Below are positions 36,126 through 53,824 of a stretch of 64,000 nucleotides of DNA, piece after piece. The notes beneath the pieces are model-generated. The model searched no databases and had not been told where the DNA came from. It saw nothing but the letters and a program-made list of their open reading frames with translations. The number at the start of each line of letters is the position of its first letter. Position 1 is the first letter of the stretch. The position numbers and the translations under genes are program-made. Origin of the DNA: Promethearchaeota archaeon (GTDB lineage Archaea; Asgardarchaeota; Lokiarchaeia; Sigyniarchaeales; SOKP01). Location: assembly GCA_011364925.1 (NCBI GenBank), contig RDOA01000003.1:32001-96000 (forward strand), in the 5' to 3' direction.

Positions 36126-38039
36126 TTATTTCTGCTTGGCTTTTGTAAGAAATAAATCTGCTATTGCTAACCATTTTTGCTCGGTTTCAGCGTCGAGAGT
36201 ACTCTTTTTTGCTAAATTTTTACCTTCATCAAGGTTTTTAAGAGCTAAATCATACTTTTCAAGCGATTGATAACAAATTCCTAATTTAATATAAGTTTGA
36301 TAAATATACCAATCGTCGCTTCCAAGAACCATCGCTTTGAGAAATTTATTCACCGCTTCTTCGTAATCTTCAAAATACATTAATATTTCACCATATGTAT
36401 CTTGATAAAGTCCATTATTTGGTTCTTTTTTGGTAAGTTTCTGGATTAAGTTTAACGCTCCTTCTCTATCATCTAAGTATTGGAGCCAATAAGCTTTATA
36501 GCAAATAAGATCGTTATCATTTGGGTAGTTAGTGATTAATTCGTTAATGATTTCTAAACCAACTTCAACATTTTGCATTCTTCTAAGAACCGTTGCCTTT
36601 AATATTTTGAGATCTTTTTCATTTTCGGGAAATCTTTCCAGCAGGTCCTCTAGGTAATCTAAGGCTTCTCTATATTGATTAAAGTAGATTAAAATTCTAA
36701 GCTTCTGATAATATAAATTAAGATCACTTGGTTCCAGTTCAATTTTTTTCTCAATTTCCTGTATTTGTGGTTCTAATTGATCACCAAAAGATTTAGTCAT
36801 ATCTGATTGAAAAATAGTTGAAATTTTCTGCCAAATTATACCTTCTAGTTTATCGTAGCTCTCTTTTAATTTTCTTTTAGTCTCAATTTTATAAGCTAAA
36901 TAATTGATATATTCCAATAAGAATTCTTTTAAGGAAGGCTTTAATTCAATATTAAACAAGAACTCACAGCTCTTTTCTGCAATATCGTCTATAATAGATT
37001 CTACATCAGATCTAGGAAAAATTGGAGTGGATTTTGAAAAAAGTTTATTCAAATAGAAAAATTTAGCCAAGCTCTCCTCAATCAATGCGCGCAACATACT
37101 TTCTATTTTTCCTCCTGATTGAAAATAATAGTGTTCACCAGAAGAATGCCTTAATTCAAAAAATCTCAAAGGATATATTCTCCCCTCAGATATTTCAATT
37201 ATATAATAATCGAGCGTCGTTTTTTTAATATCATAGCGTTTTGAGAAATCTTCGGAGGAAATAGAGTTTGGATAGTTATCAGGATGATTAATTGAAAAGA
37301 AGAGTATAATTTTGTGAAACGAGCCCTCGTCTTTCAATAGCGGTTTAACTTTTTCGTAATCTAAAATTAAAATGTAGTTGAGAAATCTGAATTGAATATC
37401 CTTGTCTTTAATTTTATATTTATCAAAAAAATTGAGCGTTTTTTCCGTAATTTCTTCGATCCTTTTACCTTCCTCCTCTAAAATAGTTTGTCTATCCAAG
37501 TCGTAATTTTTAAGCATCCGTGAGTATTCAGATTTACCTAATCGGGTAATTGTATACTTTCCATCCTCTTTTACGATATTACCCTTTTCGATTAATGTAC
37601 TTAAATTCTTAGACAACGAAGATTGATTAATTGAAAGTGGTTCTTCAAGAAATTCAGACCTTCTACAGAAATTATTATTGTAGACCATCCAAAGAATCCA
37701 GTGAGTGTAATTTCTTCCACTCTTTAAAAGCACATCAGGTGGATAATTTAGTATGCGTGCTTTTTTCTTTGCGCTTGAGAGTTCGTTAAATTTCTTTTTT
37801 CCATCTGATGTGATTCTATAATGTCCTCTTGTGACTTTTTCAATAAATCCCTTACGTTGTAGGGGTTCCAAATGCCTAGAAAGCGTTCCTGGTGGAATCT
37901 TGAGCGGATCCTGACAGAAATCTGCCCATTTACACATTTCATTGTTGGTCAACATCCAGAGAATAATATGGTCATAATTAGGTCTATTCCACTTAGAAGG
38001 GGTATAAATCTTGTCTGGAGGGTAATTTACATTTTCCAT
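36126..38039 (-). CDS. Tandem winged-HTH + C-terminal TPR regulator (module A)
   Basis: Two repeats NYxHxILWM.xNN.xC...LSxxL..L..KG.I.K...Y.IT..GK, a third degenerate wHTH, and about 5 TPRs (YQDTYGEIL). Confidence 0.85.
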   Translation of the reverse strand: MENVNYPPDKIYTPSKWNRPNYDHIILWMLTNNEMCKWADFCQDPLKIPPGTLSRHLEPLQRKGFIEKVTRGHYRITSDGKKKFNELSSAKKKARILNYPPDVLLKSGRNYTHWILWMVYNNNFCRRSEFLEEPLSINQSSLSKNLSTLIEKGNIVKEDGKYTITRLGKSEYSRMLKNYDLDRQTILEEEGKRIEEITEKTLNFFDKYKIKDKDIQFRFLNYILILDYEKVKPLLKDEGSFHKIILFFSINHPDNYPNSISSEDFSKRYDIKKTTLDYYIIEISEGRIYPLRFFELRHSSGEHYYFQSGGKIESMLRALIEESLAKFFYLNKLFSKSTPIFPRSDVESIIDDIAEKSCEFLFNIELKPSLKEFLLEYINYLAYKIETKRKLKESYDKLEGIIWQKISTIFQSDMTKSFGDQLEPQIQEIEKKIELEPSDLNLYYQKLRILIYFNQYREALDYLEDLLERFPENEKDLKILKATVLRRMQNVEVGLEIINELITNYPNDNDLICYKAYWLQYLDDREGALNLIQKLTKKEPNNGLYQDTYGEILMYFEDYEEAVNKFLKAMVLGSDDWYIYQTYIKLGICYQSLEKYDLALKNLDEGKNLAKKSTLDAETEQKWLAIADLFLTKAKQK

Positions 38040-38132
38040 AATTTTAGAAAATTCGATGTTAATTATCTAATTTATAGATCGGGATCTTTCATATTTATAT
38101 CTTTTTTATCAAACCTTCGAAAAAAATCGATA

Positions 38133-38209
38133 CTATCGTGAATCTATCGTGAGCGGAATTATAAATGGAACAATATCTGAAGAGCAATTAATCATCATAA
38201 AGATGATTA
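38133..38209 (+). promoter_or_regulatory. Conserved promoter module, copy 1
   Basis: CTATCGTG at 38133 and 38144, TTATAAAT at 38159, TAATCATC-ATAAA-GATGATTA at 38189. Confidence 0.8.
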
Positions 38210-38259
38210 TTTACCAAAAAAAAGTTGAATTAAAAAAATTATGTAAGGTGAAAATGATA

Positions 38260-38907
38260 ATGAAAAAAAAATCAAAAGTGATTAAAGGTTTTCTTGCAAC
38301 ATCATTTTTCATAACTATCATAGCAATTGTTCCATCGGCGTTAGCTTTTGATCCTAATCGCTTCTACTTCGTAGCAATAGGAGATGATCTAGATATCCCA
38401 AGAACTACTAATTTTATCATAGGGAAGATTGAATTCGGTGAAGATGGTGAACTCCCATCAGCGAGCATACTTTTCTATTCAAAAGTCCGTGATGAATCAA
38501 GAAAAGTCTATACGATGACAGGAATGCTCAACGAGGTATATTTTATTGATAAGAGCTTTTCATTTTTCTGCCCACTCTTTAAAGTCTGGTTTGTTAATGT
38601 GTGGCAAGTCATGGGTCAGGGAAAGTTTAGGACTACTGGTACCAGCCCCCAAGTATACTTTCGAGATTTGTTTACAATAACCATGCCAAATACTGGAGGT
38701 GAAGTTGTATCAGCACAGATTTTAGTGTTATTAAGCCCTACAGCTGAATATAGAGAGGGTGATCCCATAAATGGACCGACAGGACCAGTTAAAATTTGGG
38801 AACAAGGAAAATGGGCCCTTGCTGCGGTTATATGGTATGTTCCTGAAATTGATGATTATATGCCAATTGGTCCGATATCCGATATGACAATATTCATAGG
38901 AAGATGA
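38260..38907 (+). CDS. Exported beta-rich protein
   Basis: AGGTGA RBS then MKKKSK...SALA signal peptide. The track start at 38149 lies inside the promoter. Confidence 0.75.
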   Translation: MKKKSKVIKGFLATSFFITIIAIVPSALAFDPNRFYFVAIGDDLDIPRTTNFIIGKIEFGEDGELPSASILFYSKVRDESRKVYTMTGMLNEVYFIDKSFSFFCPLFKVWFVNVWQVMGQGKFRTTGTSPQVYFRDLFTITMPNTGGEVVSAQILVLLSPTAEYREGDPINGPTGPVKIWEQGKWALAAVIWYVPEIDDYMPIGPISDMTIFIGR

Positions 38908-39153
38908 ATCCTATAGTGCTAAATCAATCGTAACAGATAATAAATATATTTTAAATTCTTTTTTTTTTTATAATATCCTTTAGACTATTATTAATTTATT
39001 TACTCTTAAAGAGATTTTTGTCAAGAGAAATCTAATCCAATAATATATGAAATTAATAGAAAAGAATGTTAAGATCCATAATCTATTACACTACATTTAA
39101 AACACTAATTAGCTTATAATATTCATAGGTTTATTATCCAAACAGTTGAGTAT

Positions 39154-41103
39154 ATGTCCCATTCTGAACTAAATCAATTAGCAAGAGCGGAAGAACTTTT
39201 TGATGAAGGTGAGCTTGACAAGGCTTATGGGATCTTAAACGATCGGAGCCAATTTGAGGAGCTAAATCCCCAACAAAAAGAGCATTTCCAGTTTCTTAAG
39301 GGCTTAATTCTATTTTCCCAGTGGAAACATGTAGAGCTTTTTAAGCATGGTGAGGAAATATTTAAAGAAGGTCAAAACCTTAATGATAATCTCCAATCGC
39401 TTGATGGACTATTTTTTATAATCGCTGGATTAGGTCAAGCTAACAGATTTAAAGAAGCCATTCAAAAATTTGAAACTGCTGAAGTGCTATTAGAGCTTAG
39501 TTCTAATGAATCCAGAACCATTTTTACTCAAAGAAAAGCTCGGATGAGACTTCTAAAAGGATGGATTAATCTGGAGTCAAATAATCTAGATGTAGCAGAA
39601 AAGTGCTTAGATTGGGTCTTAAATTCCCAAAATGATCTGGGTAATACATTTGAAATTGTTTGGGCTACTTTATTGAAGGCACGACTTAAGTTTCAAGGAA
39701 AATTGATGTATAATCTCTGTGGAGAATACGCTAAGAAAGCTTTTTCAATGGCAAAACAAATTAAATTTAACCACTTCTGGATTGCTCTTTGTCAAGTGAT
39801 TTTAGGGGCGCTATATTCTAGTCTAGGCGAGATAGATATCAGTTTGAAATATTTCATGAAAAGTTTGGCGATATTTAGAAAAATCAAAAGCAATTATTGG
39901 ATTGCATTTGTGCTTAACGGCGTAGGCTGTATCTATTATGAACTTGGCAATTTCAAACTAAGTCTTAAATACTACGAAGAATGTTTATCAATTCATGAAA
40001 AATTAACTGGTTATCTGGTTCTACCTCTTTCTAATTTAGTTGAAGTGGCGCTTGAAATAGGTGATAATGAACTTGCTCGGCAATACTTCAATCGACTAAA
40101 AAATTTTTACAATCCAAAAGAAGATAGGCTAAGTGAATTAGCATACTTATCTACTAAGGCATTAATGCTAAAAAAGAGTCCTCGAATTCGCGATAAAGCA
40201 AAAGCTGAAGAGATATTTAGAAAAATCATAAACATTGATGCTTTATGGAGTGAATTTGTGATTCACGCAACAATTCATCTGTGTGACCTGCTTCTTTCAG
40301 AATATCATTTTACTAATAGTAATGAAGTACTTGAAGAGCTTAATCACTACATTGCTAAATTATTAACTATAGCGGAAAAAACACAATCATATACTTACTC
40401 TTGTAATACTTTCATATTACAAGCAAAACTAGCTTTAATAAAGTTTGATATAAAATCAGCTCGACGACTTTTTACTCAAGCACAGAAAATAGCGGAATCC
40501 AATGGGATGAACCGATTAGCAATGAAAATTTCACAGGAACACGATGAGTTAATCAAGCAAATAAAGGTATGGGAAATGTTAAAAGAATCAGAAGCGTCAT
40601 TATCTGAACGCTTTGAACTCGCTGGTTTAAGTAAGCAGATAGAAAGTATGGTGAAAAGGAGAATCATTGAAGTTCCAGAGCTTTCAGATGAAGAACCTGT
40701 GCTACTTTTAATAATTTCTGAGGGAGGCACACCATTTTTCTCACAATCTTTTAATGTGGAAAAATCATTCGAATCACACCTTTTTGGCGGCTTTTTGAGC
40801 ACTATAGATTACTTTATTAACGAGGTGTTTTCCGAAGGATTAGATCGCGCCGTATTCGGCGAACACACTCTTCTTATGAAGTCCGTTCCGCCTTTTTTTA
40901 TTGCCTATATATTTAAAGGTCAATCTTACTATGCTCTTCAAAAAATGAGTAGTTTCATTAGTAACCTCCAAAAAAATACTGATATTTGGAATAAATTACT
41001 TAGACATTTTCGAGCAAATCAGACTATTCAATTGAAAGATTTTCCTTTAATCGATTCCTTAATTACAAATACTTTTCTCGCAGGACATACATCTTCGAAA
41101 TAA
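39154..41103 (+). CDS. TPR + C-terminal longin-like domain protein 1
   Basis: Multiple TPRs; EEPVLLLIISEGG.PFFS...LFGGFLSTIDYF...LDRAVFG..TLLMK...YIFKG longin-type pattern. Confidence 0.8.
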   Translation: MSHSELNQLARAEELFDEGELDKAYGILNDRSQFEELNPQQKEHFQFLKGLILFSQWKHVELFKHGEEIFKEGQNLNDNLQSLDGLFFIIAGLGQANRFKEAIQKFETAEVLLELSSNESRTIFTQRKARMRLLKGWINLESNNLDVAEKCLDWVLNSQNDLGNTFEIVWATLLKARLKFQGKLMYNLCGEYAKKAFSMAKQIKFNHFWIALCQVILGALYSSLGEIDISLKYFMKSLAIFRKIKSNYWIAFVLNGVGCIYYELGNFKLSLKYYEECLSIHEKLTGYLVLPLSNLVEVALEIGDNELARQYFNRLKNFYNPKEDRLSELAYLSTKALMLKKSPRIRDKAKAEEIFRKIINIDALWSEFVIHATIHLCDLLLSEYHFTNSNEVLEELNHYIAKLLTIAEKTQSYTYSCNTFILQAKLALIKFDIKSARRLFTQAQKIAESNGMNRLAMKISQEHDELIKQIKVWEMLKESEASLSERFELAGLSKQIESMVKRRIIEVPELSDEEPVLLLIISEGGTPFFSQSFNVEKSFESHLFGGFLSTIDYFINEVFSEGLDRAVFGEHTLLMKSVPPFFIAYIFKGQSYYALQKMSSFISNLQKNTDIWNKLLRHFRANQTIQLKDFPLIDSLITNTFLAGHTSSK

Positions 41104-41170
41104 TTTTTAACTATGTTTTATTGCGTTCGAATTATTCCCAATTTTCAAGCTGTATCATAGAGAATTGAAA

Positions 41171-41246
41171 CTATCGTGAAACTATCGCGAGCTCAATTAT
41201 AAATGCAACAATACCTCAAAATCTATTTAGTCATCGTAAAGATGAT
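41171..41246 (+). promoter_or_regulatory. Conserved promoter module, copy 2
   Basis: CTATCGTG 41171, CTATCGCG 41182, TTATAAAT 41197, GTCATC-GTAAA-GATGAT 41230. Confidence 0.8.
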
Positions 41247-41282
41247 AAAATTGAGATTTCAATAAAAAAGCGGATTCAGAAA

Positions 41283-41678
41283 ATGACTGAAATTAAAAAA
41301 TTTACAAAAATCGTGCTTATAGTGGATGCTATTCTTTGGTTCATGTTTACGATATTCCTTATATTTATTTTTGATATGACTATGAATCCTGAGGGTTGGA
41401 CAAACCCCTATCTCCCAAAATTATTTGGGGGTGTTATTTTTGTATCTGCTATTTTCGCAATTTTAATGCTTCGTAAAAAAGAATGGGAAGAAATTAAACT
41501 GTTATTTGCGTATTTTATAGGGTTACTAATATCGACATTATTCTTTGAAGCTACTGTATTTGCTATTGTAGGATTTGCTTTTGGAACTCTAACGATTATG
41601 GTACATTCATTTAATATAACAGTAGAGGCTGTACTTCTAGCGCTTGCAATTATCAGCTGGATAAAACAAAGAGTATAA
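41283..41678 (+). CDS. Four-TM membrane protein
   Basis: Four hydrophobic helices; GWTNPY loop. Confidence 0.8.
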   Translation: MTEIKKFTKIVLIVDAILWFMFTIFLIFIFDMTMNPEGWTNPYLPKLFGGVIFVSAIFAILMLRKKEWEEIKLLFAYFIGLLISTLFFEATVFAIVGFAFGTLTIMVHSFNITVEAVLLALAIISWIKQRV

Positions 41679-41854
41679 AGCAAAAATCAAAATTAAATTT
41701 AAAAAATTTTTTTCTTTTTTTGACATTGAATATCCATTCTAATAGGTATTAGAATTTTAATAGCAGATTGGTGAACATTATATTTAAAACCCAATTTAGC
41801 TTATATTAGTAATTATATCCAAAAATGTCTTAAATTAAAATGATTTTTGAGTAG

Positions 41855-43549
41855 ATGTTTTTTCTTAATCCTGAGATTAAAGGTTTGAATTCAGTTAGGC
41901 AACTTATGGAAGATGGGAAAATGCAGAAAGCCTTCCAAATTGTTTTAGAATTAGAACAAGGAGACGATCTTTCTCCCAAAGAATTACTCTCGTGTAAGCT
42001 CGTAAAGGCTAATCTATTACGTGTAATAGGAAATTATCCAGACGCAATTGAAATTGCTAAGGAAATTTTTCGAGAATTTCAAAAACAAGGTGATTTAGTA
42101 TCATCGTTAGACGCTTTACTTATTCAAGCATATACCTATATGATAACGGTTAATTTAACTCAAAGTGAACATCTTATTCCACAGATAGAAAATTTATTCA
42201 AAGCAATTAAAGAACCATTATCAATAGATCTCAAAGAAAGAGAATCTTTTTTCTTAAGAATAAAAGCTGCTATTCATTCTCTCAAAGGCGAATTTCAACG
42301 ATCCTTAGAACTTAACAAAAAAGCTTATGATCTAGCTAAAGAGACTGGAAACACAGTATTGATTGTTGCGAGTCTTAATAATACTGCTAATGATTATTTC
42401 CATATGAAAGAATATGACATGGCAATAATGTATGGTAAACAAGCTATTAAGAATGATAGTCTAAATTTGGCAGTTGCGTACGCTACCTTAATTGAAACTT
42501 ATGTCAGCAAGGGAGACATTAAAGAAGCGATAATTTATCTCGATCGTTTGCATGAATTTTCAGAGAATTACGATTCTAAATGGAATAGAACTTTATATTC
42601 CCTAAATAAAGCTTTGATATTAAAATCAAGTCTCCGAGCAAGAGATCGTATTAAAGCAGAAGATCTATTTAAAAAAATAGCTTTGGACAGTACTGTAGCT
42701 GGTACAATGCGGATTGATGCGATTATATATTTATGCGATTTATACTTAACTGAACTTCGGATAACTCACGACCCAGAAATAATAAACGAGATTCACCCAT
42801 ATATTCAAGAGTTATTAAGTATTGCTAAAAAACAAGATTCACATTTATATTTAGCCGAAACTCTACTTTTGCAAGCAAAACTTTCACTATTGACTTTAGA
42901 TATAAAAGAAGCTAAACGATTTTTAACTCGAGGCCAAAAAGTAGCAGAATCACATGGTATTAAACAACTAGCAATGAGAATCTCAAACGAACACGATTAT
43001 TTACTCGGTCAAGAAAAACTCTGGAATAATTTCAAGCAATCAAAAGTTCCTTTCTCTGAACGCTTGGAACTCGCTGGTTTGAATCAACAGATGGATTATA
43101 TGACAAAAAGGCAAATATTCACTATTCCACAACAACCAGACGAGGAACCGGTGCTCCTTTTATTGCTTTCAGAGGGGGGAGTACCCTTTTTCTCCCACAC
43201 TTTTGTAGAAGATCGATCCTTCAAATCGCATCTTTTTGGTGGATTTCTAACCACTATTGATTACTTTATTCGAGAAATGTTTTCTGAAGGATTAGATCGA
43301 GCAATCTTTGGAGATTACACACTTGTTATGAAGTCTCTAACACCTTTTTTTGTTTCCTATATATTTAAAGGTAATTCTTATTACGCTCTCCAAAAAACAG
43401 ATTATTTTATTGAATGTATTAAGAAAGATGAGCATATATGGGCAAAACTACTAAAATATCTTCAAGCAAACCAGTCAATTCAATTAAAAGACATCCCTCA
43501 ACTTGATTCTTTGATAATAGAAATCTTTATCCCAGAAAAATCTGTATGA
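41855..43549 (+). CDS. TPR + longin-like protein 2
   Basis: Same architecture as 39154. Confidence 0.8.
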   Translation: MFFLNPEIKGLNSVRQLMEDGKMQKAFQIVLELEQGDDLSPKELLSCKLVKANLLRVIGNYPDAIEIAKEIFREFQKQGDLVSSLDALLIQAYTYMITVNLTQSEHLIPQIENLFKAIKEPLSIDLKERESFFLRIKAAIHSLKGEFQRSLELNKKAYDLAKETGNTVLIVASLNNTANDYFHMKEYDMAIMYGKQAIKNDSLNLAVAYATLIETYVSKGDIKEAIIYLDRLHEFSENYDSKWNRTLYSLNKALILKSSLRARDRIKAEDLFKKIALDSTVAGTMRIDAIIYLCDLYLTELRITHDPEIINEIHPYIQELLSIAKKQDSHLYLAETLLLQAKLSLLTLDIKEAKRFLTRGQKVAESHGIKQLAMRISNEHDYLLGQEKLWNNFKQSKVPFSERLELAGLNQQMDYMTKRQIFTIPQQPDEEPVLLLLLSEGGVPFFSHTFVEDRSFKSHLFGGFLTTIDYFIREMFSEGLDRAIFGDYTLVMKSLTPFFVSYIFKGNSYYALQKTDYFIECIKKDEHIWAKLLKYLQANQSIQLKDIPQLDSLIIEIFIPEKSV

Positions 43550-43704: not shown

Positions 43705-45387
43705 ATGATTCATTTTGATGATAAAGAACTGATTGAAATCAGTCAAATTATAGAAGAGGGCAAACTGAAGGAAGCTTACCAGGCTATTTTAGAATTGGAG
43801 CAAAAAGATGATCTATCTAATAAAGAAAAAATCTCATGTAAACTCATTAAAGCTAATCTTTTCCGAGTTATGGGACAATATTTGGAATCTATTGAATATG
43901 CTGAAACAGTTTTTCAAGAATCTCAAAAAGGAGGAGATATTCTTTCATCTTTCGATGCTTTAACCATTCAAGCGCATTGCTATACATATATGGTTGACAT
44001 AATTAAAAGTGAAGAACTTTACACTCAAGCACAAGAGATATTTAAAATAATAAAAGAAAGATTTTCCATAGATCTAAGGGAGAGAGAATCTTTCTTGGTA
44101 AGGATAAAAGCTGGAATTAACTTTTTTAAGGGAGATATTAAATCTTATATAAAATTAAATGAGGAGGCTTATGACCTCGCAAAAAATACAAAGAGTGAAA
44201 ACCTAATTGCTTCTAGCCTTAACAACCTTGCTCAAGGTTACTTTCATTTAAAAGAATATGACAAAGCCATACAGTATGCTAAAGAAGCCGTTAAGATTGG
44301 AAAATCTTTTACTTTAGCTTATGCATTAGGAACATTAATTGATATATATCTCGGGATGGGCGATATTAACGAAGCAAAAGCTAATCTTGGAATCTTTCAT
44401 GATCATGCCAAAGAACTTGGTACTGAAAGATACAAAACTCTCTATAATTACTCTAAAGCATCAGTTTTAAAAGCTAGTCTAAGAGCCAGAGACCGTATCA
44501 AATCTGAAGATATCTTCCTGAGTATTGCATTGGATCATGCAAGACCTAGCGAACAAAGGATTGATGCGATTCTTAGTTTATGTGATTTATACATAACTGA
44601 ACTTCGGATAACTAATGACCCCGAAATAATAAACGAGATTCACCCATATATTCAAGAATTGTTAAATATTGCTAAAAAACAACATTCACGTTTATATTTA
44701 GCCGAAACATTACTTTTGCAAGCAAAACTTTCACTACTAACTTTAGATATAAAAGAAACTAAACGATTTTTAAATCAAGGTCAAAAAATAGCAGAATTGT
44801 ACGGTATTAAACAACTGGCAATGAGAATCTCAAATGAACATGATAATTTACTCAGTCAAGAAAAAATTTGGGAGAATTTCAAGCAATCAAAAGTACCCTT
44901 CTCCGAACGTTTGGAACTCGCCGGTTTGAATCAACAGATGGATTATATGACGAGAAGGCGAATATCTGTTATCCCACAACAACCCGGCGAGGAACCAGTG
45001 CTGCTTTTATTGCTTTCAGAGGGAGGAGTCCCTTTTTTCTCATACACATTTGGAGAAGATCGATCCTTTAAATCGCATCTTTTTGGTGGATTTTTAACCA
45101 CTATCGATTACTTTATTCGAGAAATGTTTTCTGAAGGATTAGATCGCGCAATCTTTGGAGATTACACTCTTGTCATGAAGTCTGTGACGCCATTTTTCGT
45201 TTCCTATATATTTAAAGGCAATTCTTATTACGCTCTCCAGAAAGCGGATAATTTTATTGATACTATTAAAAACAACGAGCAACTTTGGAAAAAGCTGCTT
45301 AAATATTTTCAAGCGAACCAAGCAATTCAATTAAATGACATCCCTCAACTTGATTCTCTAATAAATGAGGTCTTTATAACAAAATAA
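43705..45387 (+). CDS. TPR + longin-like protein 3
   Basis: 3' half nearly identical to 41855; 5' half divergent. Confidence 0.8.
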   Translation: MIHFDDKELIEISQIIEEGKLKEAYQAILELEQKDDLSNKEKISCKLIKANLFRVMGQYLESIEYAETVFQESQKGGDILSSFDALTIQAHCYTYMVDIIKSEELYTQAQEIFKIIKERFSIDLRERESFLVRIKAGINFFKGDIKSYIKLNEEAYDLAKNTKSENLIASSLNNLAQGYFHLKEYDKAIQYAKEAVKIGKSFTLAYALGTLIDIYLGMGDINEAKANLGIFHDHAKELGTERYKTLYNYSKASVLKASLRARDRIKSEDIFLSIALDHARPSEQRIDAILSLCDLYITELRITNDPEIINEIHPYIQELLNIAKKQHSRLYLAETLLLQAKLSLLTLDIKETKRFLNQGQKIAELYGIKQLAMRISNEHDNLLSQEKIWENFKQSKVPFSERLELAGLNQQMDYMTRRRISVIPQQPGEEPVLLLLLSEGGVPFFSYTFGEDRSFKSHLFGGFLTTIDYFIREMFSEGLDRAIFGDYTLVMKSVTPFFVSYIFKGNSYYALQKADNFIDTIKNNEQLWKKLLKYFQANQAIQLNDIPQLDSLINEVFITK

Positions 45388-45431
45388 CTTGTTTGATCTC
45401 TATTTAGGTAATTGATTAAAAATAATTGAAA

Positions 45432-45509
45432 CTATCGCGAAACTATCGATAGCTCAATTATAAATGAGATTTTACCTCCAGATTTAATTAGTCATCGCAA
45501 AGATGATTA
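45432..45509 (+). promoter_or_regulatory. Conserved promoter module, copy 3
   Basis: CTATCGCG 45432, CTATCGAT 45443, TTATAAAT 45458, TAGTCATC-GCAAA-GATGATTA 45489. Confidence 0.8.
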
Positions 45510-45532
45510 CTTTAAATCTAAACACAAGAGAG

Positions 45533-46255
45533 TTGATAAAAATTAATAGATCAAAAATAGTTAAAAATATAACATTACTTGCGACTATCGGAATTTTACT
45601 TCTGGTGTTTTCCACATCAGTGCAAGGTTGGGGTGGATATAGGAGTCGAATCAATATTAGACCTATAGAGGATTGGAAAGGAGAAGATGTTGTAGGCTGG
45701 GCAGATCCAGAATCTGGGTTAGTTATCCATCCTCAAGCTGTCGAATGGGTCCCCGCTGATCCAGAGAGTCCTAACTTTCCATTTACTCTCTTAGATTGGG
45801 AGCGAAAACCCATATGGGAGTGCGAATATTGGGGAACGATTCTGGAACGAGAATTAGATGATCAAAACACATTAATCTCTATTTATATTTATGTAAAGGA
45901 AGTTCCCTTCATGATCTTCACTCTTACTGGAGCAGATTATATCTATTATCCCCCACTCTATTATGGTGTGATGCAATACTATTTCCAATGCAAGATGCAA
46001 TTCAATACAGAGTCCCTTTATAATATATTTGAAGCTGATGGAAAAATTCCTGCTCTCAATGAAATATTTGGTGCATCCTACGGTTTTTGGCCTTATCCCG
46101 AAGAACCAGTTCCACTTGTGACATACATGCACATTTTAGGAGTGGGTGAAATAACTGAAGGAGGAGATGGAACTGTATATCTCCATCAACTTGGGATTTT
46201 TAACACAGAAATAGGAGATTATGATTATCCGTACGAAACGGTAGTCGTTAAGTAG
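45533..46255 (+). CDS. Exported acidic/aromatic-rich protein
   Basis: TTG start MIKINRSKIV mirrors 49116; signal peptide ending SVQG. Confidence 0.75.
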   Translation: MIKINRSKIVKNITLLATIGILLLVFSTSVQGWGGYRSRINIRPIEDWKGEDVVGWADPESGLVIHPQAVEWVPADPESPNFPFTLLDWERKPIWECEYWGTILERELDDQNTLISIYIYVKEVPFMIFTLTGADYIYYPPLYYGVMQYYFQCKMQFNTESLYNIFEADGKIPALNEIFGASYGFWPYPEEPVPLVTYMHILGVGEITEGGDGTVYLHQLGIFNTEIGDYDYPYETVVVK

Positions 46256-46293
46256 AGAGCTTTAGGGCGAGGTTTTATATATTTAAATTACAT

Positions 46294-46364: not shown

Positions 46365-46457
46365 AATTCCTTAGAAAAGGTAAAATTAATTCAATTGAAT
46401 AAATATCGAATTCAATTAACTAAAGTTTTATATTAGGCTATATCTAATTTTACATTA

Positions 46458-47012
46458 ATGACTAATTCTTCTGAATTTGGCTTTAAAATATCTATAATCG
46501 GTGATGGCGGGGTTGGTAAGACCTCCCTAATCAAAAAGTATACAATGGGAACTTTTGAGAAGGATTATGTTAAGACGATAGGTGCTCAATTCTCTAGATA
46601 TGATCAAGAAATCGATGGAGATCTAATTAATTTAATATTTTGGGATATCGCAGGTCAGGATGATTTTAAATTCCTGCATCCTTTATTTTATAAAGAGAGC
46701 CGAGCTGCTATTATTGTATATAGTCTTGAAGAAAATGATTTAGGTAATGATAGCTACAAGCATATAATCAATTGGTATAACGAATTAAAGAAATATTGTG
46801 GAATTATTCCTGTGGTTATTATTGCCAATAAAATTGATTTAATTAATCAATCTGAGTTGGATGAGTTTGCAATTCAAAATTTAGTCAAAGAAAATAACTT
46901 TCTTGGATATTTTATTACTTCTGCAAAAACAGGCGAGGGAGTAATAGATGCTTTTAACGCAATTATCAAAAACTTATACTATAAGTATAAAGATTTATCT
47001 AGCTCTCAGTAG
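46458..47012 (+). CDS. Rab-like small GTPase (module A)
   Basis: GDGGVGKTS, YVKTIG, WDIAGQ, NKID, TSAK; no C-terminal Cys tail. Confidence 0.95.
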   Translation: MTNSSEFGFKISIIGDGGVGKTSLIKKYTMGTFEKDYVKTIGAQFSRYDQEIDGDLINLIFWDIAGQDDFKFLHPLFYKESRAAIIVYSLEENDLGNDSYKHIINWYNELKKYCGIIPVVIIANKIDLINQSELDEFAIQNLVKENNFLGYFITSAKTGEGVIDAFNAIIKNLYYKYKDLSSSQ

Positions 47013-48927
47013 CGTGATTTAAAGGTATCAAAGATCTATGTTCCTCTATCTCTGCGAGAAAAAGGTCTACAATTGCTAACCATTTATTTTTTGATTCCAA
47101 ATCGCTTATAATTTTGCTTGTTAATTCTTTTCCTCTCTTAAGATTTTGTACAGCTAATTCAAAATTTTCGAGAGCTGTATAACAAATTCCAATTTTGATA
47201 TAAGTCTGATAGATAAACCAATCGTTAGAATCAATTTCTATGGCTTTTTGGAATTCATTTATCGCTTCTTCGTATTCTTTAAAGTTTATTAAAATTTCTC
47301 CGAATGTATCGTGGAAAATTCCATTTTCTGGTTCTTTTTTTACGAGTTCCCGAAGAAGTTCCAATGCTTCTTGTTCTTTATCTAAATAAGATAACCAATA
47401 CGCTTTATAATTATGAAGCAGAGTATTGTTTGGATATTTTTCGATTAAATCTTCAATAATTTTTAAGCCTTCTTCTAAGTTTTTATCTTTTTTAAGAGTA
47501 TAAGCTTTTTTTATCGTAATATCTATCTCTTTTTTAGGAAATATCTCGAACATGTTTTCTAGTACCATTAAAACATCGTTATACTGATTAAAATAGAGTA
47601 AAATTCGTACTTTTGAATTGTATAAATCGTAATTCTTTGGACTTAATTCAATTTCATTTTCTATTTCTTTAATTTTCTCTTTGTATTGAGATTCAAATGT
47701 TTCAGAATTCTGCGATTGCATTATCTCCGTCATGTTCTGCCAAATAATTCCTTCTAGTTTATCGTATGTCTCTACTAATTCTTTTTTTATCTCAATTTTA
47801 TATGCTAGATATTCCATATACTCTGGTAAAAATTCTCTTAATGGTTCCTCGAAATCCTTATGAAATAAAAATTGACATACTTCTTCGAGAATATCGTCAA
47901 TCATCGAATTCATACTTCCTAATTCAGCAAATTTTTCTAAATATTTGTTTGCTGCTATATGTTCTTCCGTAATAGCTCGAAGAATTTTCTCTAATTTTTC
48001 GTCAAAATGGAAATAGTACCGTTTCTTGGGGGAAATATCTAAAATAAAAAACTTTAAGTCGTAGAATTCGCTTTCTACAATCTCATGTACCCAATAATCA
48101 AGCATTCTCTTCTCTATTTTGTAAAATCTCGAAAAATCCTCAAAAGATAAGTAATCAGGATAAAAATCGGGATGATTTATTGAAATAAAGAGCAAAATTT
48201 TGTAAAAATCCTCCTCATCTTTTAAGATTGAGTTAACTTTTAAATAATCTAATTTTAAAACCTTATTGAGAAATCTAAATTTTACACGATCGTCAATAAT
48301 ATTGAACTTATCGAAGAAATGCGACGCTTTTACAGTGATTTCGTCTATTCGCTTTCTTTCTTCTTCTAAAATTGTTTGTCTGTCTAAATTATAATTTTGT
48401 AGAATCCTCGAATATTCTATTTTCCCTAATTGAGTAATGATATATCTTTTGTTTTCTCTGACGATAAATCCCTTTTGAATTAATAAACTTAGAGTTTTTG
48501 ATAAAGAGGACTGATTTATAGAGAAAGGTTTTTCAAGAAAATCAGACCTTTTACAAAACCCATTATTGTACACCATCCAAATAATCCAGTGGGCATAATT
48601 TCGCCCTCTCTTCAAAATGACATCAGGGGGGAAACTTAGTTTTCGTTCCCTGGTTCTTTCTCTTGATAATTCTTGAAATTTTTGTTCCCCTTCTGGAGTT
48701 ATCTGGTATTGTCCTCTAGAAAGTTTCTCTACGAAGCCTTTGAGGATTAATTTTGTTAAATGACGGGAAATTGTAGATATGGGAATTTCAAGCGGTTTTT
48801 GTTCGAAATAGGACCATTCACAACTTTCATTATTCTTTAACATCCAAAGAATAATATGGTCATAGTTTGGCCTTTTCAGTTTAGAGGAATTAAGAATCTC
48901 ATCGGAAGGATAATTTATTTTGCTCAT
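46999..48927 (-). CDS. Tandem winged-HTH + TPR regulator (module B)
   Basis: Full-length paralog of 36126. Confidence 0.85.
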   Translation of the reverse strand: MSKINYPSDEILNSSKLKRPNYDHIILWMLKNNESCEWSYFEQKPLEIPISTISRHLTKLILKGFVEKLSRGQYQITPEGEQKFQELSRERTRERKLSFPPDVILKRGRNYAHWIIWMVYNNGFCKRSDFLEKPFSINQSSLSKTLSLLIQKGFIVRENKRYIITQLGKIEYSRILQNYNLDRQTILEEERKRIDEITVKASHFFDKFNIIDDRVKFRFLNKVLKLDYLKVNSILKDEEDFYKILLFISINHPDFYPDYLSFEDFSRFYKIEKRMLDYWVHEIVESEFYDLKFFILDISPKKRYYFHFDEKLEKILRAITEEHIAANKYLEKFAELGSMNSMIDDILEEVCQFLFHKDFEEPLREFLPEYMEYLAYKIEIKKELVETYDKLEGIIWQNMTEIMQSQNSETFESQYKEKIKEIENEIELSPKNYDLYNSKVRILLYFNQYNDVLMVLENMFEIFPKKEIDITIKKAYTLKKDKNLEEGLKIIEDLIEKYPNNTLLHNYKAYWLSYLDKEQEALELLRELVKKEPENGIFHDTFGEILINFKEYEEAINEFQKAIEIDSNDWFIYQTYIKIGICYTALENFELAVQNLKRGKELTSKIISDLESKNKWLAIVDLFLAEIEEHRSLIPLNHATES

Positions 48928-49010
48928 GATAGTTGAAAACTTAGTCTTATGATTAATTATGAATATTTATATTTATATCTATTTTTCGAAACTTCCACTT
49001 TTTTTCGGAA

Positions 49011-49086
49011 TTTCCGTGGAATTATCGGAAGCTTAATTATATATGCAAATTTATCTCAAGATTTAATTAATCATCGTAAAGATGAT
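49011..49086 (+). promoter_or_regulatory. Conserved promoter module, copy 4 (diverged repeats)
   Basis: TTTCCGTG 49011, TTATCGGA 49022, TTATATAT 49037, ATCATC-GTAAA-GATGAT 49070. Confidence 0.7.
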
Positions 49087-49115
49087 AAAATCTAATATAA
49101 CTGAAAAAAAAAGAG

Positions 49116-49664
49116 TTGATTAAAATTAATAGAACAAAATTAGTACCAAAATTAATACTAGTACTCTTAGTATTTACCACTATAACTGGCTTTGCATTTA
49201 CTTTTGTTGTAGCTAAAGGAGATCAAAGGGCAAGTAGATTATCTTTTACAGCTACAGAAACTATGATATGGCCAGATGGTTGGGTTCCTATAGGTGATCC
49301 ATGGGGTGATGGTAAGTTCATACATCAGATGTACTATAAAAAAGCAATTCTTGATGGCACAATTGAGGAAATAGGGGACTTTTCAGGGTATGATGAATTA
49401 TATTTGCATGTTAAAATGGACCCAAATACCTTTGAGGTTATAAGCATTGGTAAAGTAACGATGTATATCTTTTGCGATAACGGACTAGAAGGAACTTTTT
49501 ATGGATCTGTTATTGCGAAGGGTACAGCTGGCTTTGGTCCTTTCGACGGTAAATATACGTTGCAAGGAGCTGGAGGATTTGAAGGAATGAAGCTTTTTGG
49601 TATAGTCTGGCTTGAAAGTGGTCTAGTAAACGGACTTTCTGGTACAATCTTAATCCCAAATTAA
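49116..49664 (+). CDS. Exported all-beta protein
   Basis: Signal peptide MIKINRTKLV...VVA; Gly-rich beta strands (GAGGFEGMKLFG). Confidence 0.75.
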   Translation: MIKINRTKLVPKLILVLLVFTTITGFAFTFVVAKGDQRASRLSFTATETMIWPDGWVPIGDPWGDGKFIHQMYYKKAILDGTIEEIGDFSGYDELYLHVKMDPNTFEVISIGKVTMYIFCDNGLEGTFYGSVIAKGTAGFGPFDGKYTLQGAGGFEGMKLFGIVWLESGLVNGLSGTILIPN

Positions 49665-49688
49665 AATCAAGAATAAAGGTGAATTCAA

Positions 49689-50777
49689 ATGCAAAAATCA
49701 ATGCAAAGAAAACTATTGTTGATGTTTCTCCTTGGTTCAATATTTTTCGTAATTCCTATTGCGAGCTCTAATGGAACTACATTCACTCCAAAGAAGGTTG
49801 CAGAACAATCTCTGTCCGGTGCTACAACTCACGTTTATTTGGATGGAGATTACGCATTCATGGGAGTTGGAACATCCGGTCTGGCCATCGTTGATATTTC
49901 CCACCCGAAAAATCCAGGAACCCCGGTCTATAGAGACACCTCCGGCAGGGCGTATAACCTTTGGGTAGAGGGAGGCTACGCCTATGTGGCAGATTTTGAT
50001 AAGGGTTTAGCTGTCATTGATGTTTCCGACCCAACAAACCCAGGACCTGCTACGCACGTACTAACAACCCAAGCTTGTGGTGATGTATGTGTTAGTGGAA
50101 ATTACGCTTATGTGGACGGTGGTGGCTTAGCGGTTATCGACATTTCTGACCCAGTGCATCCGAACCTGGTCGTAACCAAACCTTTAACTGGAATTCCGTA
50201 TGGTCTTTGCGTGAGTGGAGAATACGCATACATAGCAACTGCTGATACTGGTTTGGCGATCGTCAATATTTCCGATCCGACCAATCCAGGAACTCCCATT
50301 TACGAAGATACGACCGGAACTGCGTGGGATGTGTGTGTAAGTGGCGGTTACGCCTATGTAACAACCGGTAGTACCGGTTTAGCGATTATCGATGTTTCCG
50401 ACCCGACAAATCCGGGAACGCCTGTTTATAGAGACACGACAGGAACTGCATATTTTATTTTTCTAAACGGAAGTTACGCCTATATAGCGGCTGATACTGG
50501 AGGCGTGGCGATCATTGATGTATCCGACCCGACAAATCCGGGAACGCCGACCTATATAGATGTGGAAGGTCAAGCAATTGATGTGTATGTCAGGGGAGAC
50601 TATGCTTATGTGGCGGATGAACATTACGGCTTGAAAGTCTACGATCTTTTCTATACTACTCCAGAACCTGGTATTCCATTCGATAATTTCTACTTATTAT
50701 TTATTGGGTTTAGCGTACTATGCTTAGTATTCATCGTTTCAAAAAAACGCAAAATTACTAGTGAATCTCAAAAATAA
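49689..50777 (+). CDS. LVIVD-repeat beta-propeller surface protein with C-terminal TM anchor
   Basis: About 7 repeats of V.G.YAYVA....GLAIIDVSDPTNPG; signal peptide; PGIPF-TM-KKRK sorting-like tail. Confidence 0.9.
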   Translation: MQKSMQRKLLLMFLLGSIFFVIPIASSNGTTFTPKKVAEQSLSGATTHVYLDGDYAFMGVGTSGLAIVDISHPKNPGTPVYRDTSGRAYNLWVEGGYAYVADFDKGLAVIDVSDPTNPGPATHVLTTQACGDVCVSGNYAYVDGGGLAVIDISDPVHPNLVVTKPLTGIPYGLCVSGEYAYIATADTGLAIVNISDPTNPGTPIYEDTTGTAWDVCVSGGYAYVTTGSTGLAIIDVSDPTNPGTPVYRDTTGTAYFIFLNGSYAYIAADTGGVAIIDVSDPTNPGTPTYIDVEGQAIDVYVRGDYAYVADEHYGLKVYDLFYTTPEPGIPFDNFYLLFIGFSVLCLVFIVSKKRKITSESQK

Positions 50778-50799
50778 ATCAAAAATCTAATAATTAATG

Positions 50800-50832
50800 T
50801 TAACACCTAATTGGTGTTAAACAAATTTTTTT
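50800..50832 (+). terminator. Hairpin + T-run
   Basis: TTAACACC-TAATT-GGTGTTAA followed by a T tract. Confidence 0.6.
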
Positions 50833-51093
50833 CTTATCTTTTACTGGATTTATAATGCATTTTATCATTTATTTTCAGATTTTATTAATCTTAGAATTCA
50901 TTTACTAATTCAAGTGATATATATGATTTTTAACGAAGTGAATAAATTGAACTTTATAGGGAAGATACATTAAGGTTATCTCTCTTTTCAAATCAAAAAT
51001 CAATTACATTTAAAATTATAACAAACATAATATTTTAATTAAATATTATACAATAATGTATCTTTTTCAATCCAATAATTTAGGGACAGGGTC

Positions 51094-53169
51094 TTGTCTC
51101 ATTCAAAACCTCAAGAATTGGTTCAGGTAAAACGACTCATTGATCTCGTAAGATTTGATGAAGCTAACCAATTAATTAAAGAGTTTGAGGAAAAACAAGG
51201 TCATGCTCTGTATGATGAAGTACTATGTAATCTTTTCATGTGTGACATATTATATTACCAAGGATTATATGATGAGGTTATCAAGCTTGCGGAACAAACC
51301 TATAAAGAGAGTTTAAAATTAGGAAAAAACCTACTGTCAGTTGATGCCTTACTAAGAATGGCAGGTGCGTTATCTGGGCATCGTCAATGGGAAAAATTCT
51401 GCGATAGGATTAAGCAAGGAGAAGAGCTGTTAAAGTCATTGACACATGAATTACCAGAAGAATACAAACGAAGAAAGGCTTATTTAGCTCAACTGAAAGG
51501 AGATTATTACGAAGTAAAAAATAAGTTAGATAAGTCAATACAGCAGTTTGAAATCAGTATATCATTGTACGAAGAACTTGGCAATAAAATAGAGATTGTT
51601 TGGCCTATTTTAGGAATTGCCACCGTGTTTTATTGGCATAAAGGCGATTTTGACGGTGCTTTAAAATATTTGGAGCGAGGGCTAGCAATCGCTAAGGAAA
51701 GCGGAAATATAAGGTGTATCGGGGCTTGTCTTAACCAGATGGCATATGTTCATTTTCTTAAAGGTGAGTTTGATCGCAGTATTATGCTTTTTGAGAAGAG
51801 CTTGACAATCTTCGAAGAAACTAACCTTGACCTCTGGAGAGCAAGAATTTTTTGTCTTCTAGGGGAATGTTATGCAATGAAAGGGGAAATTAATCGTAGC
51901 ATTAGATTTTTCGAACAAAGTTTAGAACTTTGGAAAAAAATAAAACATAAACCCATGATGGCTGATATCTTGAATAATGTATCTGAGTGTTATAGAATGA
52001 AAGGAGAATTTGAACATGCGTTAGAGTGTATAGAACAATCAATGGAGTTAAATCATGAGTTGGGAAACTTGGAAAGATTAGCTAATAATCACCTCTATTT
52101 TATTAAGATTTTAATTGATAGGGGTGAACTTACACGAGCATGGAGCTCTCTTCGTGATTTGGAGCAATTGAACAATCAATTAAAAGACAAAAAAATAAAT
52201 TATTATTATCTATTTGTTAAAGCTTTACTATTGAAAACAAGTATGCGAGCCCGTAATAGAGTAAAAGCTGAAGAAATTTTCAATCAACTCCTCGAAGAGG
52301 AGTTATATATGGATTTAGATTATGAATTGAATATGGGATCTCTTTTAAATTTATGCGAATTACTCCTTATTGAATTGCGCCTGATTAACGATGAAGAAAT
52401 ACTAGACGAAATTAATCCTCTACTTGTTCAACTATTGAACAGCGCTGAAAAGTCAAATTCATACTGGATACTTGGTGAAACCTATCTGCTGAGAGCAAAA
52501 CTCTCACTTTTAACCTTTGATGTTAAGAAGGCACAACTATTTTTAACCCAAGCTCAGAAGATCGCAGAATCGCACGGGATTAAACGACTAGCAATGCAAA
52601 TTTCATATGAACACGATGAATTGCTTAAAAAAGCAAAAGTTTGGGAGAATTTAAAAGAGACAGAAGCACCATTATCAAAACGTTGGGAATTAGCTGGGTT
52701 AAACGAACAAATAGAGAAAATGGTTTGGAAACGAATAGTAGAATCTCCTGAAATCTCTGAAGAAGACCCCGTTATGATATTAATCTTAACTGAGGGTGGT
52801 AATCTTTTGTTCTCACAAAAATTTGTATCGGATTTTTCTTTTGAAGAAGATCTTCTGGGGAGCTTTTTAACTACGACACATTACTTTATTAATGCCGCCT
52901 TTTCTGAGGGCCTTGATAGAGCTGTTTTTGGTCAATATACTCTTCTTATGACGCCCCTTCAACCGTTTTTAATATGTTACATCTTTAAAGGGCACTCCTA
53001 TTCTGCTCAATTTAAAATTACAAGTTTTATAGATTCTATACAAAAGGATAGAGATGTTTGGCAAACCTTACAAAAATTCTTCCAATTGAGCAGATCTGTT
53101 CACATAAACGATGTACCGATGCTAGATTCATTGATATCAAATATCTTTACTAAGAAAGTTTCTCAGTAG
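51094..53169 (+). CDS. TPR + longin-like protein 4
   Basis: Longer TPR array; EDPVMILILTEGG...LLGSFLTT...GLDRAVFG. Confidence 0.8.
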   Translation: MSHSKPQELVQVKRLIDLVRFDEANQLIKEFEEKQGHALYDEVLCNLFMCDILYYQGLYDEVIKLAEQTYKESLKLGKNLLSVDALLRMAGALSGHRQWEKFCDRIKQGEELLKSLTHELPEEYKRRKAYLAQLKGDYYEVKNKLDKSIQQFEISISLYEELGNKIEIVWPILGIATVFYWHKGDFDGALKYLERGLAIAKESGNIRCIGACLNQMAYVHFLKGEFDRSIMLFEKSLTIFEETNLDLWRARIFCLLGECYAMKGEINRSIRFFEQSLELWKKIKHKPMMADILNNVSECYRMKGEFEHALECIEQSMELNHELGNLERLANNHLYFIKILIDRGELTRAWSSLRDLEQLNNQLKDKKINYYYLFVKALLLKTSMRARNRVKAEEIFNQLLEEELYMDLDYELNMGSLLNLCELLLIELRLINDEEILDEINPLLVQLLNSAEKSNSYWILGETYLLRAKLSLLTFDVKKAQLFLTQAQKIAESHGIKRLAMQISYEHDELLKKAKVWENLKETEAPLSKRWELAGLNEQIEKMVWKRIVESPEISEEDPVMILILTEGGNLLFSQKFVSDFSFEEDLLGSFLTTTHYFINAAFSEGLDRAVFGQYTLLMTPLQPFLICYIFKGHSYSAQFKITSFIDSIQKDRDVWQTLQKFFQLSRSVHINDVPMLDSLISNIFTKKVSQ

Positions 53170-53269
53170 CATTATCTTTTTCTGTTAGTTTAATTTGCCA
53201 AAATTTTATATTAAACTAAAACCAATCTAACATTAAATACTTATAATTTGATTTAGATATAGAAATCTA

Positions 53270-53824
53270 ATGAAACCCTTTGAGGAATTTCGATTTAAAA
53301 TTGTAATCTTAGGAGATGGTGCAGTAGGTAAAACATCCCTAATTCAGAAATTCACTAAAGGGGTATTTGAAAAAGAATATGTAAAAACAATCGGAGCTCA
53401 GTTTTCAAAATACAACAAAAAGATTGATGGAGATATAATTAGATTAATATTTTGGGATATAGCAGGTCAGATAGATTTCAATTTTCTAAATCACTTATTT
53501 TATAAAGAAGCTAAAGCAGCAATTATAGTATTTAGTCTCGAAACTAATGATTTGGGTCAAAAAAGTTTCATCCATATAACAAACTGGTATAAGGAATTAG
53601 AAAAGTATTGCGGTACTATTCCTGTTGTTACATTTGCGAATAAAGTTGATTTGGTGGATAAAAATAGATTAAATGAGTCTAAAATCCAAAAATTAGCCAA
53701 GGAAAATAACTTCCTTGGATATTATATCACCTCTGCAAAAACAGGAGAGGGCGTAATAGAAGCTTTTAATGCTATTATTGATAAATTATATTTTAAATAT
53801 AAAAAATTATCATCAATTGATTGA
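53270..53824 (+). CDS. Rab-like small GTPase (module B)
   Basis: GDGAVGKTS, WDIAGQ, NKVD, TSAK; close paralog of 46458. Confidence 0.95.
   Translation: MKPFEEFRFKIVILGDGAVGKTSLIQKFTKGVFEKEYVKTIGAQFSKYNKKIDGDIIRLIFWDIAGQIDFNFLNHLFYKEAKAAIIVFSLETNDLGQKSFIHITNWYKELEKYCGTIPVVTFANKVDLVDKNRLNESKIQKLAKENNFLGYYITSAKTGEGVIEAFNAIIDKLYFKYKKLSSID

Follow-up and report, generated by a model that had tools for sequence, protein, structure and literature searches.

Tandem modules of regulator, cargo, TPR-longin and Rab-like GTPase genes confined to one Asgard family, with a tentative signalling chain from GTPase to cargo promoter

The stretch of DNA analysed here (the window) comprises 64,000 nt of a Promethearchaeota archaeon (GCA_011364925.1, contig RDOA01000003.1, 32,001-96,000 of the forward strand). 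It carries two tandem modules, A from 36126 to 47012 and B from 46999 to 53824, which an open reading frame (ORF) check, Pfam and blastp confirm. In each, a minus-strand regulator gene is followed on the plus strand by genes for exported or membrane proteins (here called cargo), for tetratricopeptide repeat (TPR) proteins ending in a longin domain (TPR-longins) and for a small Rab-like GTPase (Table 1). An earlier note on this DNA had described the same gene logic as occurring twice, and the ORFs (13/13 at the coordinates it gave), their Pfam domains and their paralogy concur. Also as described there, regulators and GTPases are close paralogs while the cargo genes are unrelated: in all-against-all blastp, RegA and RegB share 55% identity over 636 aa, GTP_A and GTP_B 70% and the four TPR proteins 37-68%, and ExpA1, ExpA2, ExpB1, TM4 and the LVIVD protein showed no mutual similarity at E<=1e-3. 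Hydropathy analysis found an N-terminal hydrophobic segment in ExpA1, ExpA2 and ExpB1, four segments in TM4 and, in the LVIVD protein, a signal at the N-terminus and an anchor at the C-terminus, while the regulators, TPR proteins and GTPases of the window have no hydrophobic segment. The pattern agrees with cargo that is exported or sits in the membrane and with a cytosolic core. Relatives are, without exception, Asgard metagenome-assembled genomes.

Table 1. Genes and promoter elements of the two modules, with nucleotide positions in the window.
Feature	Position	Strand	Description
RegA	36126..38039	-	Regulator, 637 aa; two winged helices and C-terminal TPR (Pfam, AlphaFold2, VIA)
RegA TATA-like element	38088-38114		Back-to-back with cassette copy 1
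Cargo promoter cassette, copy 1	38113..38208	+	GGAA-type repeats of 11-nt period, TATA-like AATTATAAAT, then TCATC-loop-GATGA stem
ExpA1	38254..38907	+	Exported, signal peptide ...PSALA, no known family; homologs at the same position in other modules
TPRL_A1	39154..41103	+	TPR and C-terminal longin (nt 40687-41100); shared upstream element 39088-39138
Cargo promoter cassette, copy 2	41151..41247	+
TM4	41283..41678	+	131 aa, four hydrophobic segments; homologs in other modules
TPRL_A2	41855..43549	+	TPR-longin (longin nt 43130-43546); upstream element 41775-41825
TPRL_A3	43705..45387	+	TPR-longin (longin nt 44968-45384); upstream element 43626-43676; 68% identity to TPRL_A2
Cargo promoter cassette, copy 3	45414..45508	+
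ExpA2	45503..46255	+	Exported, no known family; likely start TTG 45533
GTP_A	46458..47012	+	Rab-like small GTPase, 184 aa; conserved promoter/leader element 46411-46466
RegB	46999..48927	-	RegA paralog, 642 aa
RegB TATA-like element	48966-48992
Cargo promoter cassette, copy 4	48991..49087	+	Most divergent repeats of the four: GGAATTTCCGTGGAATTATCGGAAGC
ExpB1	49116..49664	+	Exported, no known family
LVIVD-repeat beta-propeller surface protein	49689..50777	+	Pfam LVIVD E 1.7e-70, 7 repeats; N-terminal signal, C-terminal membrane anchor
TPRL_B	51094..53169	+	TPR-longin, 691 aa (longin nt 52750-53166)
GTP_B	53270..53824	+	Rab-like GTPase, 184 aa; promoter/leader element 53189-53244

Linkage of these genes elsewhere was analyzed at 12 loci found via the longin domain and 40 regulator-centred loci from about 37 other genomes, whose gene content was scored by tblastn. 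The full order, regulator(−), cargo(+), one to four TPR-longins and GTPase(+), recurs, often in tandem, and the last TPR-longin usually lies directly upstream of the GTPase gene. The order of regulator(−) and terminal GTPase(+) is kept in many genomes of 7 genera, with varying content in between; a minimal divergent pair of regulator and GTPase is common (in the source genome it is found on contigs C56 and C23), and many modules have no TPR-longin. In 26/50 regulators the divergent string ends in a GTPase of the same subfamily; many of the other regulators are cut by contig ends or belong to longer forms (830-990 aa). The linkage that the earlier note had expected of its core families was thus found in other genomes. 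Distance matrices of regulator and GTPase were correlated (Mantel r 0.78, n=31). Eleven regulators have a GTPase on either side; for these, which serve as a control inside the same genomes, the divergent GTPase gave r 0.83, against r 0.23 for the 3'-abutting one. Since the regulator co-diverges with the GTPase at the divergent end, and not with the abutting one, the module boundaries lie as drawn here and as the note had proposed. By this measure, regulator and GTPase are inherited and diverge as a pair.

The phyletic survey covered 301 Asgard genomes, 68 of them in one family (f1). The regulator, a family of about 1,180 clusters, was present in 56/68 genomes of that family and 0/232 others, and the GTPase subfamily in 67/68 and 1/232 respectively. 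In this sample the module is limited to a single Loki-type family of the Asgard phylum, and the notion of a general Asgard circuit has to be given up for that reason. The TPR-longin domain has a different range: it occurs in 137 genomes of many families, and arrays of TPR-longin genes are also found on their own. The possibility that TPR-longins are generally linked to GTPases across the Asgard archaea was rejected, as a TPR-longin gene adjoins a GTPase gene at 0/22 loci outside the module's lineage. Because the TPR-longin is phylum-wide, not GTPase-linked elsewhere and absent from many modules, the invariant core is, on gene content, regulator plus GTPase, and a TPR-longin family present across the phylum seems to have been drawn into the module in this lineage. 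The three-part core of the earlier note is thereby reduced to two parts.

Local amplification of paralogs is heavy at these loci. At one locus of the source genome (L014, G000:C23, 8007-14372) a longer regulator paralog (842 aa) is co-directional with its GTPase; divergent from this pair lie genes that encode a histidine-kinase ATPase domain, a response-regulator receiver and two GPP34/GOLPH3-like proteins. Other genomes have, in some of their minimal modules, a GC-rich conserved element, a long inverted repeat (AGAGAGCTC...GAGCTCTCT) with flanking GGGAGAG/GGGC, between regulator and GTPase (L008 at ~11990-12200, L042 at ~11450-11700, and L021 and L053 on the reverse strand). This element does not occur in the window. 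Rfam does not recognise it, and it may represent a structured non-coding RNA.

A repeat of ~95 nt (family D5, with D19) precedes ExpA1, TM4, ExpA2 and ExpB1. Its alignment with 28 further distinct copies from other genomes gave a conserved unit of about 140 nt with the layout …AACTTCCA…N8…cGGAACTATCatGGAACTATCGGAAGCTCAATTATAAA…about 22 nt…TTAATTAATCATC-loop-GATGATAAA, in which GGAA-type repeats are phased at 11 nt, 9 nt separate the last repeat from a TATA-like box, and near the expected transcript start there is a stem or palindrome. Copies that face a regulator gene have a second TATA-like element in the opposite direction. An exact-pattern search was too strict (2 matches), and an nhmmer profile was used instead. 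In the 3.9-Mb source genome it detected four sites, all in these modules, and in the related loci 42 sites. Wherever the downstream gene was recognisable, the site lay 14-110 nt upstream of a cargo gene, and the remaining sites were mostly ahead of further signal-peptide proteins. Within the window and the related loci, no cassette was found upstream of a TPR-longin or GTPase gene; ahead of these genes stand other conserved elements (D6, D15), which lack GGAA repeats. By its distribution, the cassette is shown to be a private regulon signature on the cargo genes.

The earlier note had proposed that the regulator controls interchangeable surface or secreted genes. A private promoter on the cargo, and not on the TPR-longin and GTPase genes, fits control by the regulator. 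The word interchangeable does not apply, for the same cargo families recur across modules (ExpA1-, TM4-, ExpA2-, ExpB1- and LVIVD-like, and a few others), and the cargo, which in the window ranges from 131 to 362 aa, is on this comparison a limited family set rather than arbitrary genes.

In 32 distinct copies of the TCATC-N5-GATGA stem there were one compensatory variant (TCACC/GGTGA) and a few single-sided changes; the variant is compatible with an RNA hairpin and with a DNA palindrome alike. An ATG (GATGAT) always lies within the 3' stem arm (38196-38212, 41231-41247, 45492-45508 and 49071-49087). It is in frame with the ORF downstream in ExpA1 and ExpA2, and in the other two copies it opens a mini-ORF of 7 or 13 codons. 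Searches of the window, L008 and L042 against Rfam returned no known RNA. No micro-peptide gene was found behind the four cassettes of the window or behind 13 unassigned copies. At L039 (9211-9894), between regulator and GTPase, a GGAA-repeat/TATA promoter precedes each of two micro-ORFs, which are 23 and 29 codons long.

Several gene ends deserve comment. ExpA1 probably starts at ATG 38254 rather than at GTG 38149, because the longer ORF runs into the promoter cassette. The probable start of ExpA2 gives ExpA2 and ExpB1 matching signal-peptide starts MIKINR(S/T)K (MIKINRSK and MIKINRTK, repeat family D12). GTP_A and RegB overlap tail-to-tail by 14 nt at their 3' ends (46999-47012), so that the adjacent modules are packed without a terminator-sized gap. 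Outside the modules, a gene for a PIN-domain protein (34948-35355) lies directly upstream of RegA, and one for a C_GCAxxG_C_C protein (55593-56114) directly downstream of module B. Since a cassette-driven protein of 173 aa at L010 (4271-4792) has the same SGCAEA-type motif, the C_GCAxxG_C_C family may sometimes be cargo.

Both RegA and RegB contain two winged-helix (wHTH) domains and a C-terminal TPR according to Pfam, which in RegA fall at about aa 22-76, 111-164 and 430-637; the matches to HTH_45, HTH_34, MarR and PadR are sub-threshold to threshold. Residues 1-430 of the regulator were modelled with AlphaFold2 (predicted local distance difference test score, pLDDT, 82). When the model was compared with known structures by VIA, both wHTH domains superposed on BldR, PadR and the MarR-operator and PadR-operator complexes with Z 9-10, a root-mean-square deviation of 1.6-3 Å and 70-85 residues aligned, which is a MarR/PadR-type fold. 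The two winged helices are followed in the model by a long helix, a possible third winged helix at about aa 213-307, and helices leading into the TPR. For this middle region Pfam gave no match, even in a relaxed scan, and the ESM Atlas no usable one; a fold search with the 430-residue model gave matches that were taken up by the two wHTH domains and not by the middle region (about 186-425). Two winged helices on a single chain have a solved precedent in SarS. Such a chain, as modelled, fits a tandem direct-repeat operator, and the 11-nt-phased GGAA repeats of the cassette are the candidate operator of the regulator.

TPR or MalT-like TPR was assigned by Pfam to four plus-strand proteins of 560-691 aa, with a weak match to ComR_TPR in TPRL_A1 (E 1e-6). 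Their C-terminal ~135 aa are 53-61% identical to the first copy. Against longin, SNARE-like and roadblock profiles, the four copies of this domain gave a best Pfam E no better than 0.07, and NCBIfam gave no match. An exhaustive phmmer search found the domain in 757 representative clusters (50% identity), most of them proteins of 550-700 aa with the domain at the extreme C-terminus. An AlphaFold2 model of the domain, built with an alignment of 35 of the phmmer cluster sequences, had pLDDT 82, a predicted template modelling score (pTM) of 0.78 and the topology β-β-α-β-β-β-α-α (E8-16, E21-26, H32-51, E59-62, E65-72, E75-82, H85-101, H103-114), which is a five-stranded antiparallel sheet between helices with no roadblock-type N-terminal helix. 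Comparison of the model with 48,161 PDB representatives by VIA placed only longin proteins in the top ranks: first, synbindin (Z 12.0, 124 residues aligned) and the TRAPP core (11.1); secondly, AP μ/σ, Sec22, VAMP7, BLOC-3 and CPLANE (Z 10-11); and then Mon1-Ccz1 and SRX (Z 8-9). From synbindin to CPLANE, ~120-126 of 143 residues were aligned. Roadblock, MglB and LAMTOR chains scored lower (Z about 7, about 95 residues aligned). COPI zeta and AP sigma were the top Foldseek matches. Because longins lead the VIA ranking, roadblocks score lower and Foldseek concurs, the earlier assignment of a longin-type domain holds, and the modelled domain has a true longin fold.

The GTPases match the Ras family at a Pfam E of about 1e-40, and motifs G1-G5 can be read directly (GDGGVGKTS, TIGAQF, WDIAGQ, NKID, SAK), with the catalytic Gln present. 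The top PDB matches are Rab21, 9, 23, 18 and 5 and a Thorarchaeota Rab (E 1e-27 to 1e-23), which Rho and Ran trail by just about 15 bits. The C-termini (...YKDLSSSQ, ...YKKLSSID) lack the Cys of a prenylation motif. From these features the protein is Rab-like rather than a bona fide Rab. The source genome holds 49 small-GTPase matches. Two of its GTPases of the same subfamily have no regulator nearby. At L015 (G000:C20, 7631-9019) a V4R/DUF2507 protein is encoded behind a subfamily GTPase, in the same orientation, next to the gene for the TATA-binding protein. V4R is regarded as kin of the Bet3/TRAPPC3 fold, and L015 is possibly a second pairing of GTPase and partner in this genome.

Within the module, the correlation with GTPase divergence is higher for the longin domain (r 0.73) than for the N-terminal TPR (r 0.49), and the mean distances are 0.47 and 0.70 respectively. 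This agrees, as weak evidence, with a longin that would face the GTPase and an N-terminal TPR that would serve as input. A longin-type guanine nucleotide exchange factor (GEF) or GTPase-activating protein (GAP) is a candidate role of the TPR-longin; the observations that bear on it are the adjacency of the genes within this lineage and the better co-divergence of the longin part with the GTPase. A candidate arginine finger is the near-invariant Asp-Arg of the GLDRA motif.

We infer a signalling chain that would run from TPR-longin to GTPase to regulator to cargo transcription, and a lineage-specific duplicated module working in this way is the reading that we favour, with somewhat less than even confidence. 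Constitutively made TPR-longins, probably as longin-longin dimers, would, as GEF, GAP or platform, determine which nucleotide the cognate GTPase carries, and their fast-evolving N-terminal TPR would be the input surface. The regulator would read the GTP-bound GTPase, most plausibly via its own TPR, and its two winged helices would bind the phased GGAA repeats and so switch transcription of the cargo, and probably of its own gene. The regulator would probably act as an activator, because the site lies directly upstream of the B recognition element (BRE)/TATA. In modules that lack a TPR-longin, the GTPase would be controlled by some other route. There are precedents. Dimers of longins act as GEFs (Mon1-Ccz1, TRAPP) or GAPs (FLCN, NPRL2). 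The TPR protein SgmX of the Myxococcus polarity module binds MglA-GTP and is the TPR effector of that form, a likeness to the module described here, and the TPR of p67phox binds Rac-GTP. The narrower proposal that a longin-regulated, GTP-bound Rab-like GTPase binds the regulator TPR directly and thereby switches a private surface-protein regulon is possible, though we consider it doubtful.

Several points weigh against this chain. Gene order and co-divergence attest co-inheritance, not contact. Action of a longin on a GTPase is not a general property of the TPR-longin family, since no such adjacency was found elsewhere and many modules do without a TPR-longin. The regulator TPR is not singled out as the GTPase-binding part, because co-divergence with the GTPase is near equal for the three regulator domains (r 0.76-0.81). 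The hairpin or palindrome near the transcript start is left unexplained, and the cargo, being nearly all exported, is compatible with a role in trafficking too.

Such a role would make the locus a dedicated targeting or secretion module, in which GTPase and TPR-longins deliver or position exported and membrane cargo at the membrane by SRX-SRbeta, Sec22 or TRAPP/Rab logic, and the regulator sets only the expression of cargo and is not downstream of the GTPase. Nearly all cassette-driven genes do encode signal-peptide or transmembrane proteins, the structures closest to that of the longin belong to trafficking longins (TRAPP, AP and SNARE, together with SRX), and one paralogous regulator-GTPase pair of the source genome faces two GPP34/GOLPH3-like genes. 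We nevertheless judge it rather unlikely. Minimal regulator-GTPase pairs that stand without cargo and without TPR-longin are common; the GTPase lacks both a lipidation motif and an amphipathic N-terminus, and neither it nor the TPR-longin has a hydrophobic segment; the cargo promoter is absent from the TPR-longin and GTPase genes; and the tight co-divergence of regulator and GTPase would not be expected from mere sharing of a locus with cargo.

That the genes are simply co-amplified neighbours, a duplication hotspot holding a transcription factor with its target surface genes and a separate GTPase/TPR-longin pair with no signal flowing between them, seems improbable. The order of regulator and GTPase has held over 7 genera despite the variable content between, the divergent pairing beats the control of the adjacent neighbour (0.83 vs 0.23), and regulator and GTPase subfamily have one common narrow phyletic range, although paralogs are heavily amplified locally, TPR-longin arrays also stand alone and two subfamily GTPases of the source genome have no regulator nearby. 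An RRNPP-like circuit, in which a secreted product of the locus is re-sensed as a peptide by the TPR of regulator or TPR-longin and the GTPase is accessory, is highly improbable despite a regulator with HTH and TPR divergent from exported-protein genes, the weak ComR_TPR match and the two short ORFs at L039, for it leaves the dedicated GTPase unexplained, the HTH is a tandem winged helix and not of XRE type, the module has no peptide permease or processing protease, and no micro-ORF lies behind a cassette of the window, whose cargo includes a beta-propeller and a 4-transmembrane protein.

The module gives an orphan archaeal GTPase subfamily a testable set of partners, namely a cognate longin protein, a cognate candidate effector that binds DNA, and, both of them defined, a candidate operator and an output regulon. 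Asgard genomes hold dozens of small GTPases and many roadblock/longin proteins. The many naturally diverged paralogous sets make cognate-versus-non-cognate tests possible, and the components are small, soluble and suited to in-vitro work, an advantage with organisms that are uncultured. A phylum-wide, unannotated TPR-longin family of 757 clusters, which public records label merely "tetratricopeptide repeat protein" or "hypothetical", is added to the catalogue of eukaryote-like domains in Asgard archaea. If the regulator is gated directly by the GTPase, this would be a one-step pathway from GTPase to DNA in an archaeon, and co-diverging sets of GTPase, regulator and longin would show GTPase specificity diversifying through module duplication. 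Being confined to one family, the module informs the building of circuits and not the ancestry of eukaryotic trafficking.

We found neither a TPR-longin fusion nor a regulator-longin-GTPase unit described in the papers searched. The regulator resembles RRNPP proteins (ComR, Rgg, PlcR) in joining HTH and TPR sensor on one polypeptide beside genes for exported products. The analogy drawn in the earlier note does not extend further, as those have one XRE-type HTH where tandem winged helices are found here, a GTPase is present and the window holds no gene for a short secreted pro-peptide. For neighbourhoods of group 3 MglA with a receiver-like/wHTH protein (PMC4316618), a path from a small GTPase to an adjacent wHTH transcription regulator has been predicted in print. 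They differ in being bacterial, in the MglA family, in regulator architecture and in having no longin or TPR. The eukaryotic longin GEFs and GAPs (Mon1-Ccz1, TRAPP, BLOC-3, CPLANE; FLCN-FNIP, GATOR1 NPRL2; PMC12290439) share the longin fold (Z 8.5-12) and a partner small GTPase, which is encoded next door here, and several longin paralogs per module would permit hetero-dimeric platforms. However, there is no sequence-level relationship (zero Pfam matches), and the architecture in the module is a TPR solenoid that ends in one longin, rather than tri-longin or longin-DENN.

Nearer in phylogeny, Liu et al. (10.1101/2020.10.19.343400) described an Asgard operon of Rab-like GTPase, LAMTOR1-like roadblock and DENN, and NPRL2-like longins fused to two-component domains; according to Tran et al., the cultured strain MK-D1 generally has no operons of this kind. 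There too small GTPases are joined with roadblock/longin proteins and longins are fused to prokaryotic signalling domains, whereas the present module has no DENN or LAMTOR and has a TPR fusion and a tandem-wHTH/TPR regulator. The MglA/MglB polarity module of Myxococcus (PMC9481161, PMC13408092) also combines a small GTPase with a dimeric regulator of the roadblock superfamily. Its output is localisation of proteins at the poles, and it has no DNA-binding domain, longin-TPR fusion or private promoter regulon.

The actinobacterial conservon CvnA-D (PMC13343842, PMC13621833, PMC4316618) is the closest functional analogue. No HATPase_c, Robl_LC7 or DUF742 was found in the module by Pfam, and the longin here is fused to TPR in place of a roadblock/MglB protein, a Rab-like GTPase takes the place of one of the MglA group, the DNA-binding protein and its candidate target promoters lie within the unit, and the host is an archaeon. 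Both are nevertheless multi-copy paralogous operons around a dedicated small Ras-like GTPase, with a likely GTPase regulator of the roadblock/longin superfamily, a sensor component and, in the module putatively, an effect on gene expression.

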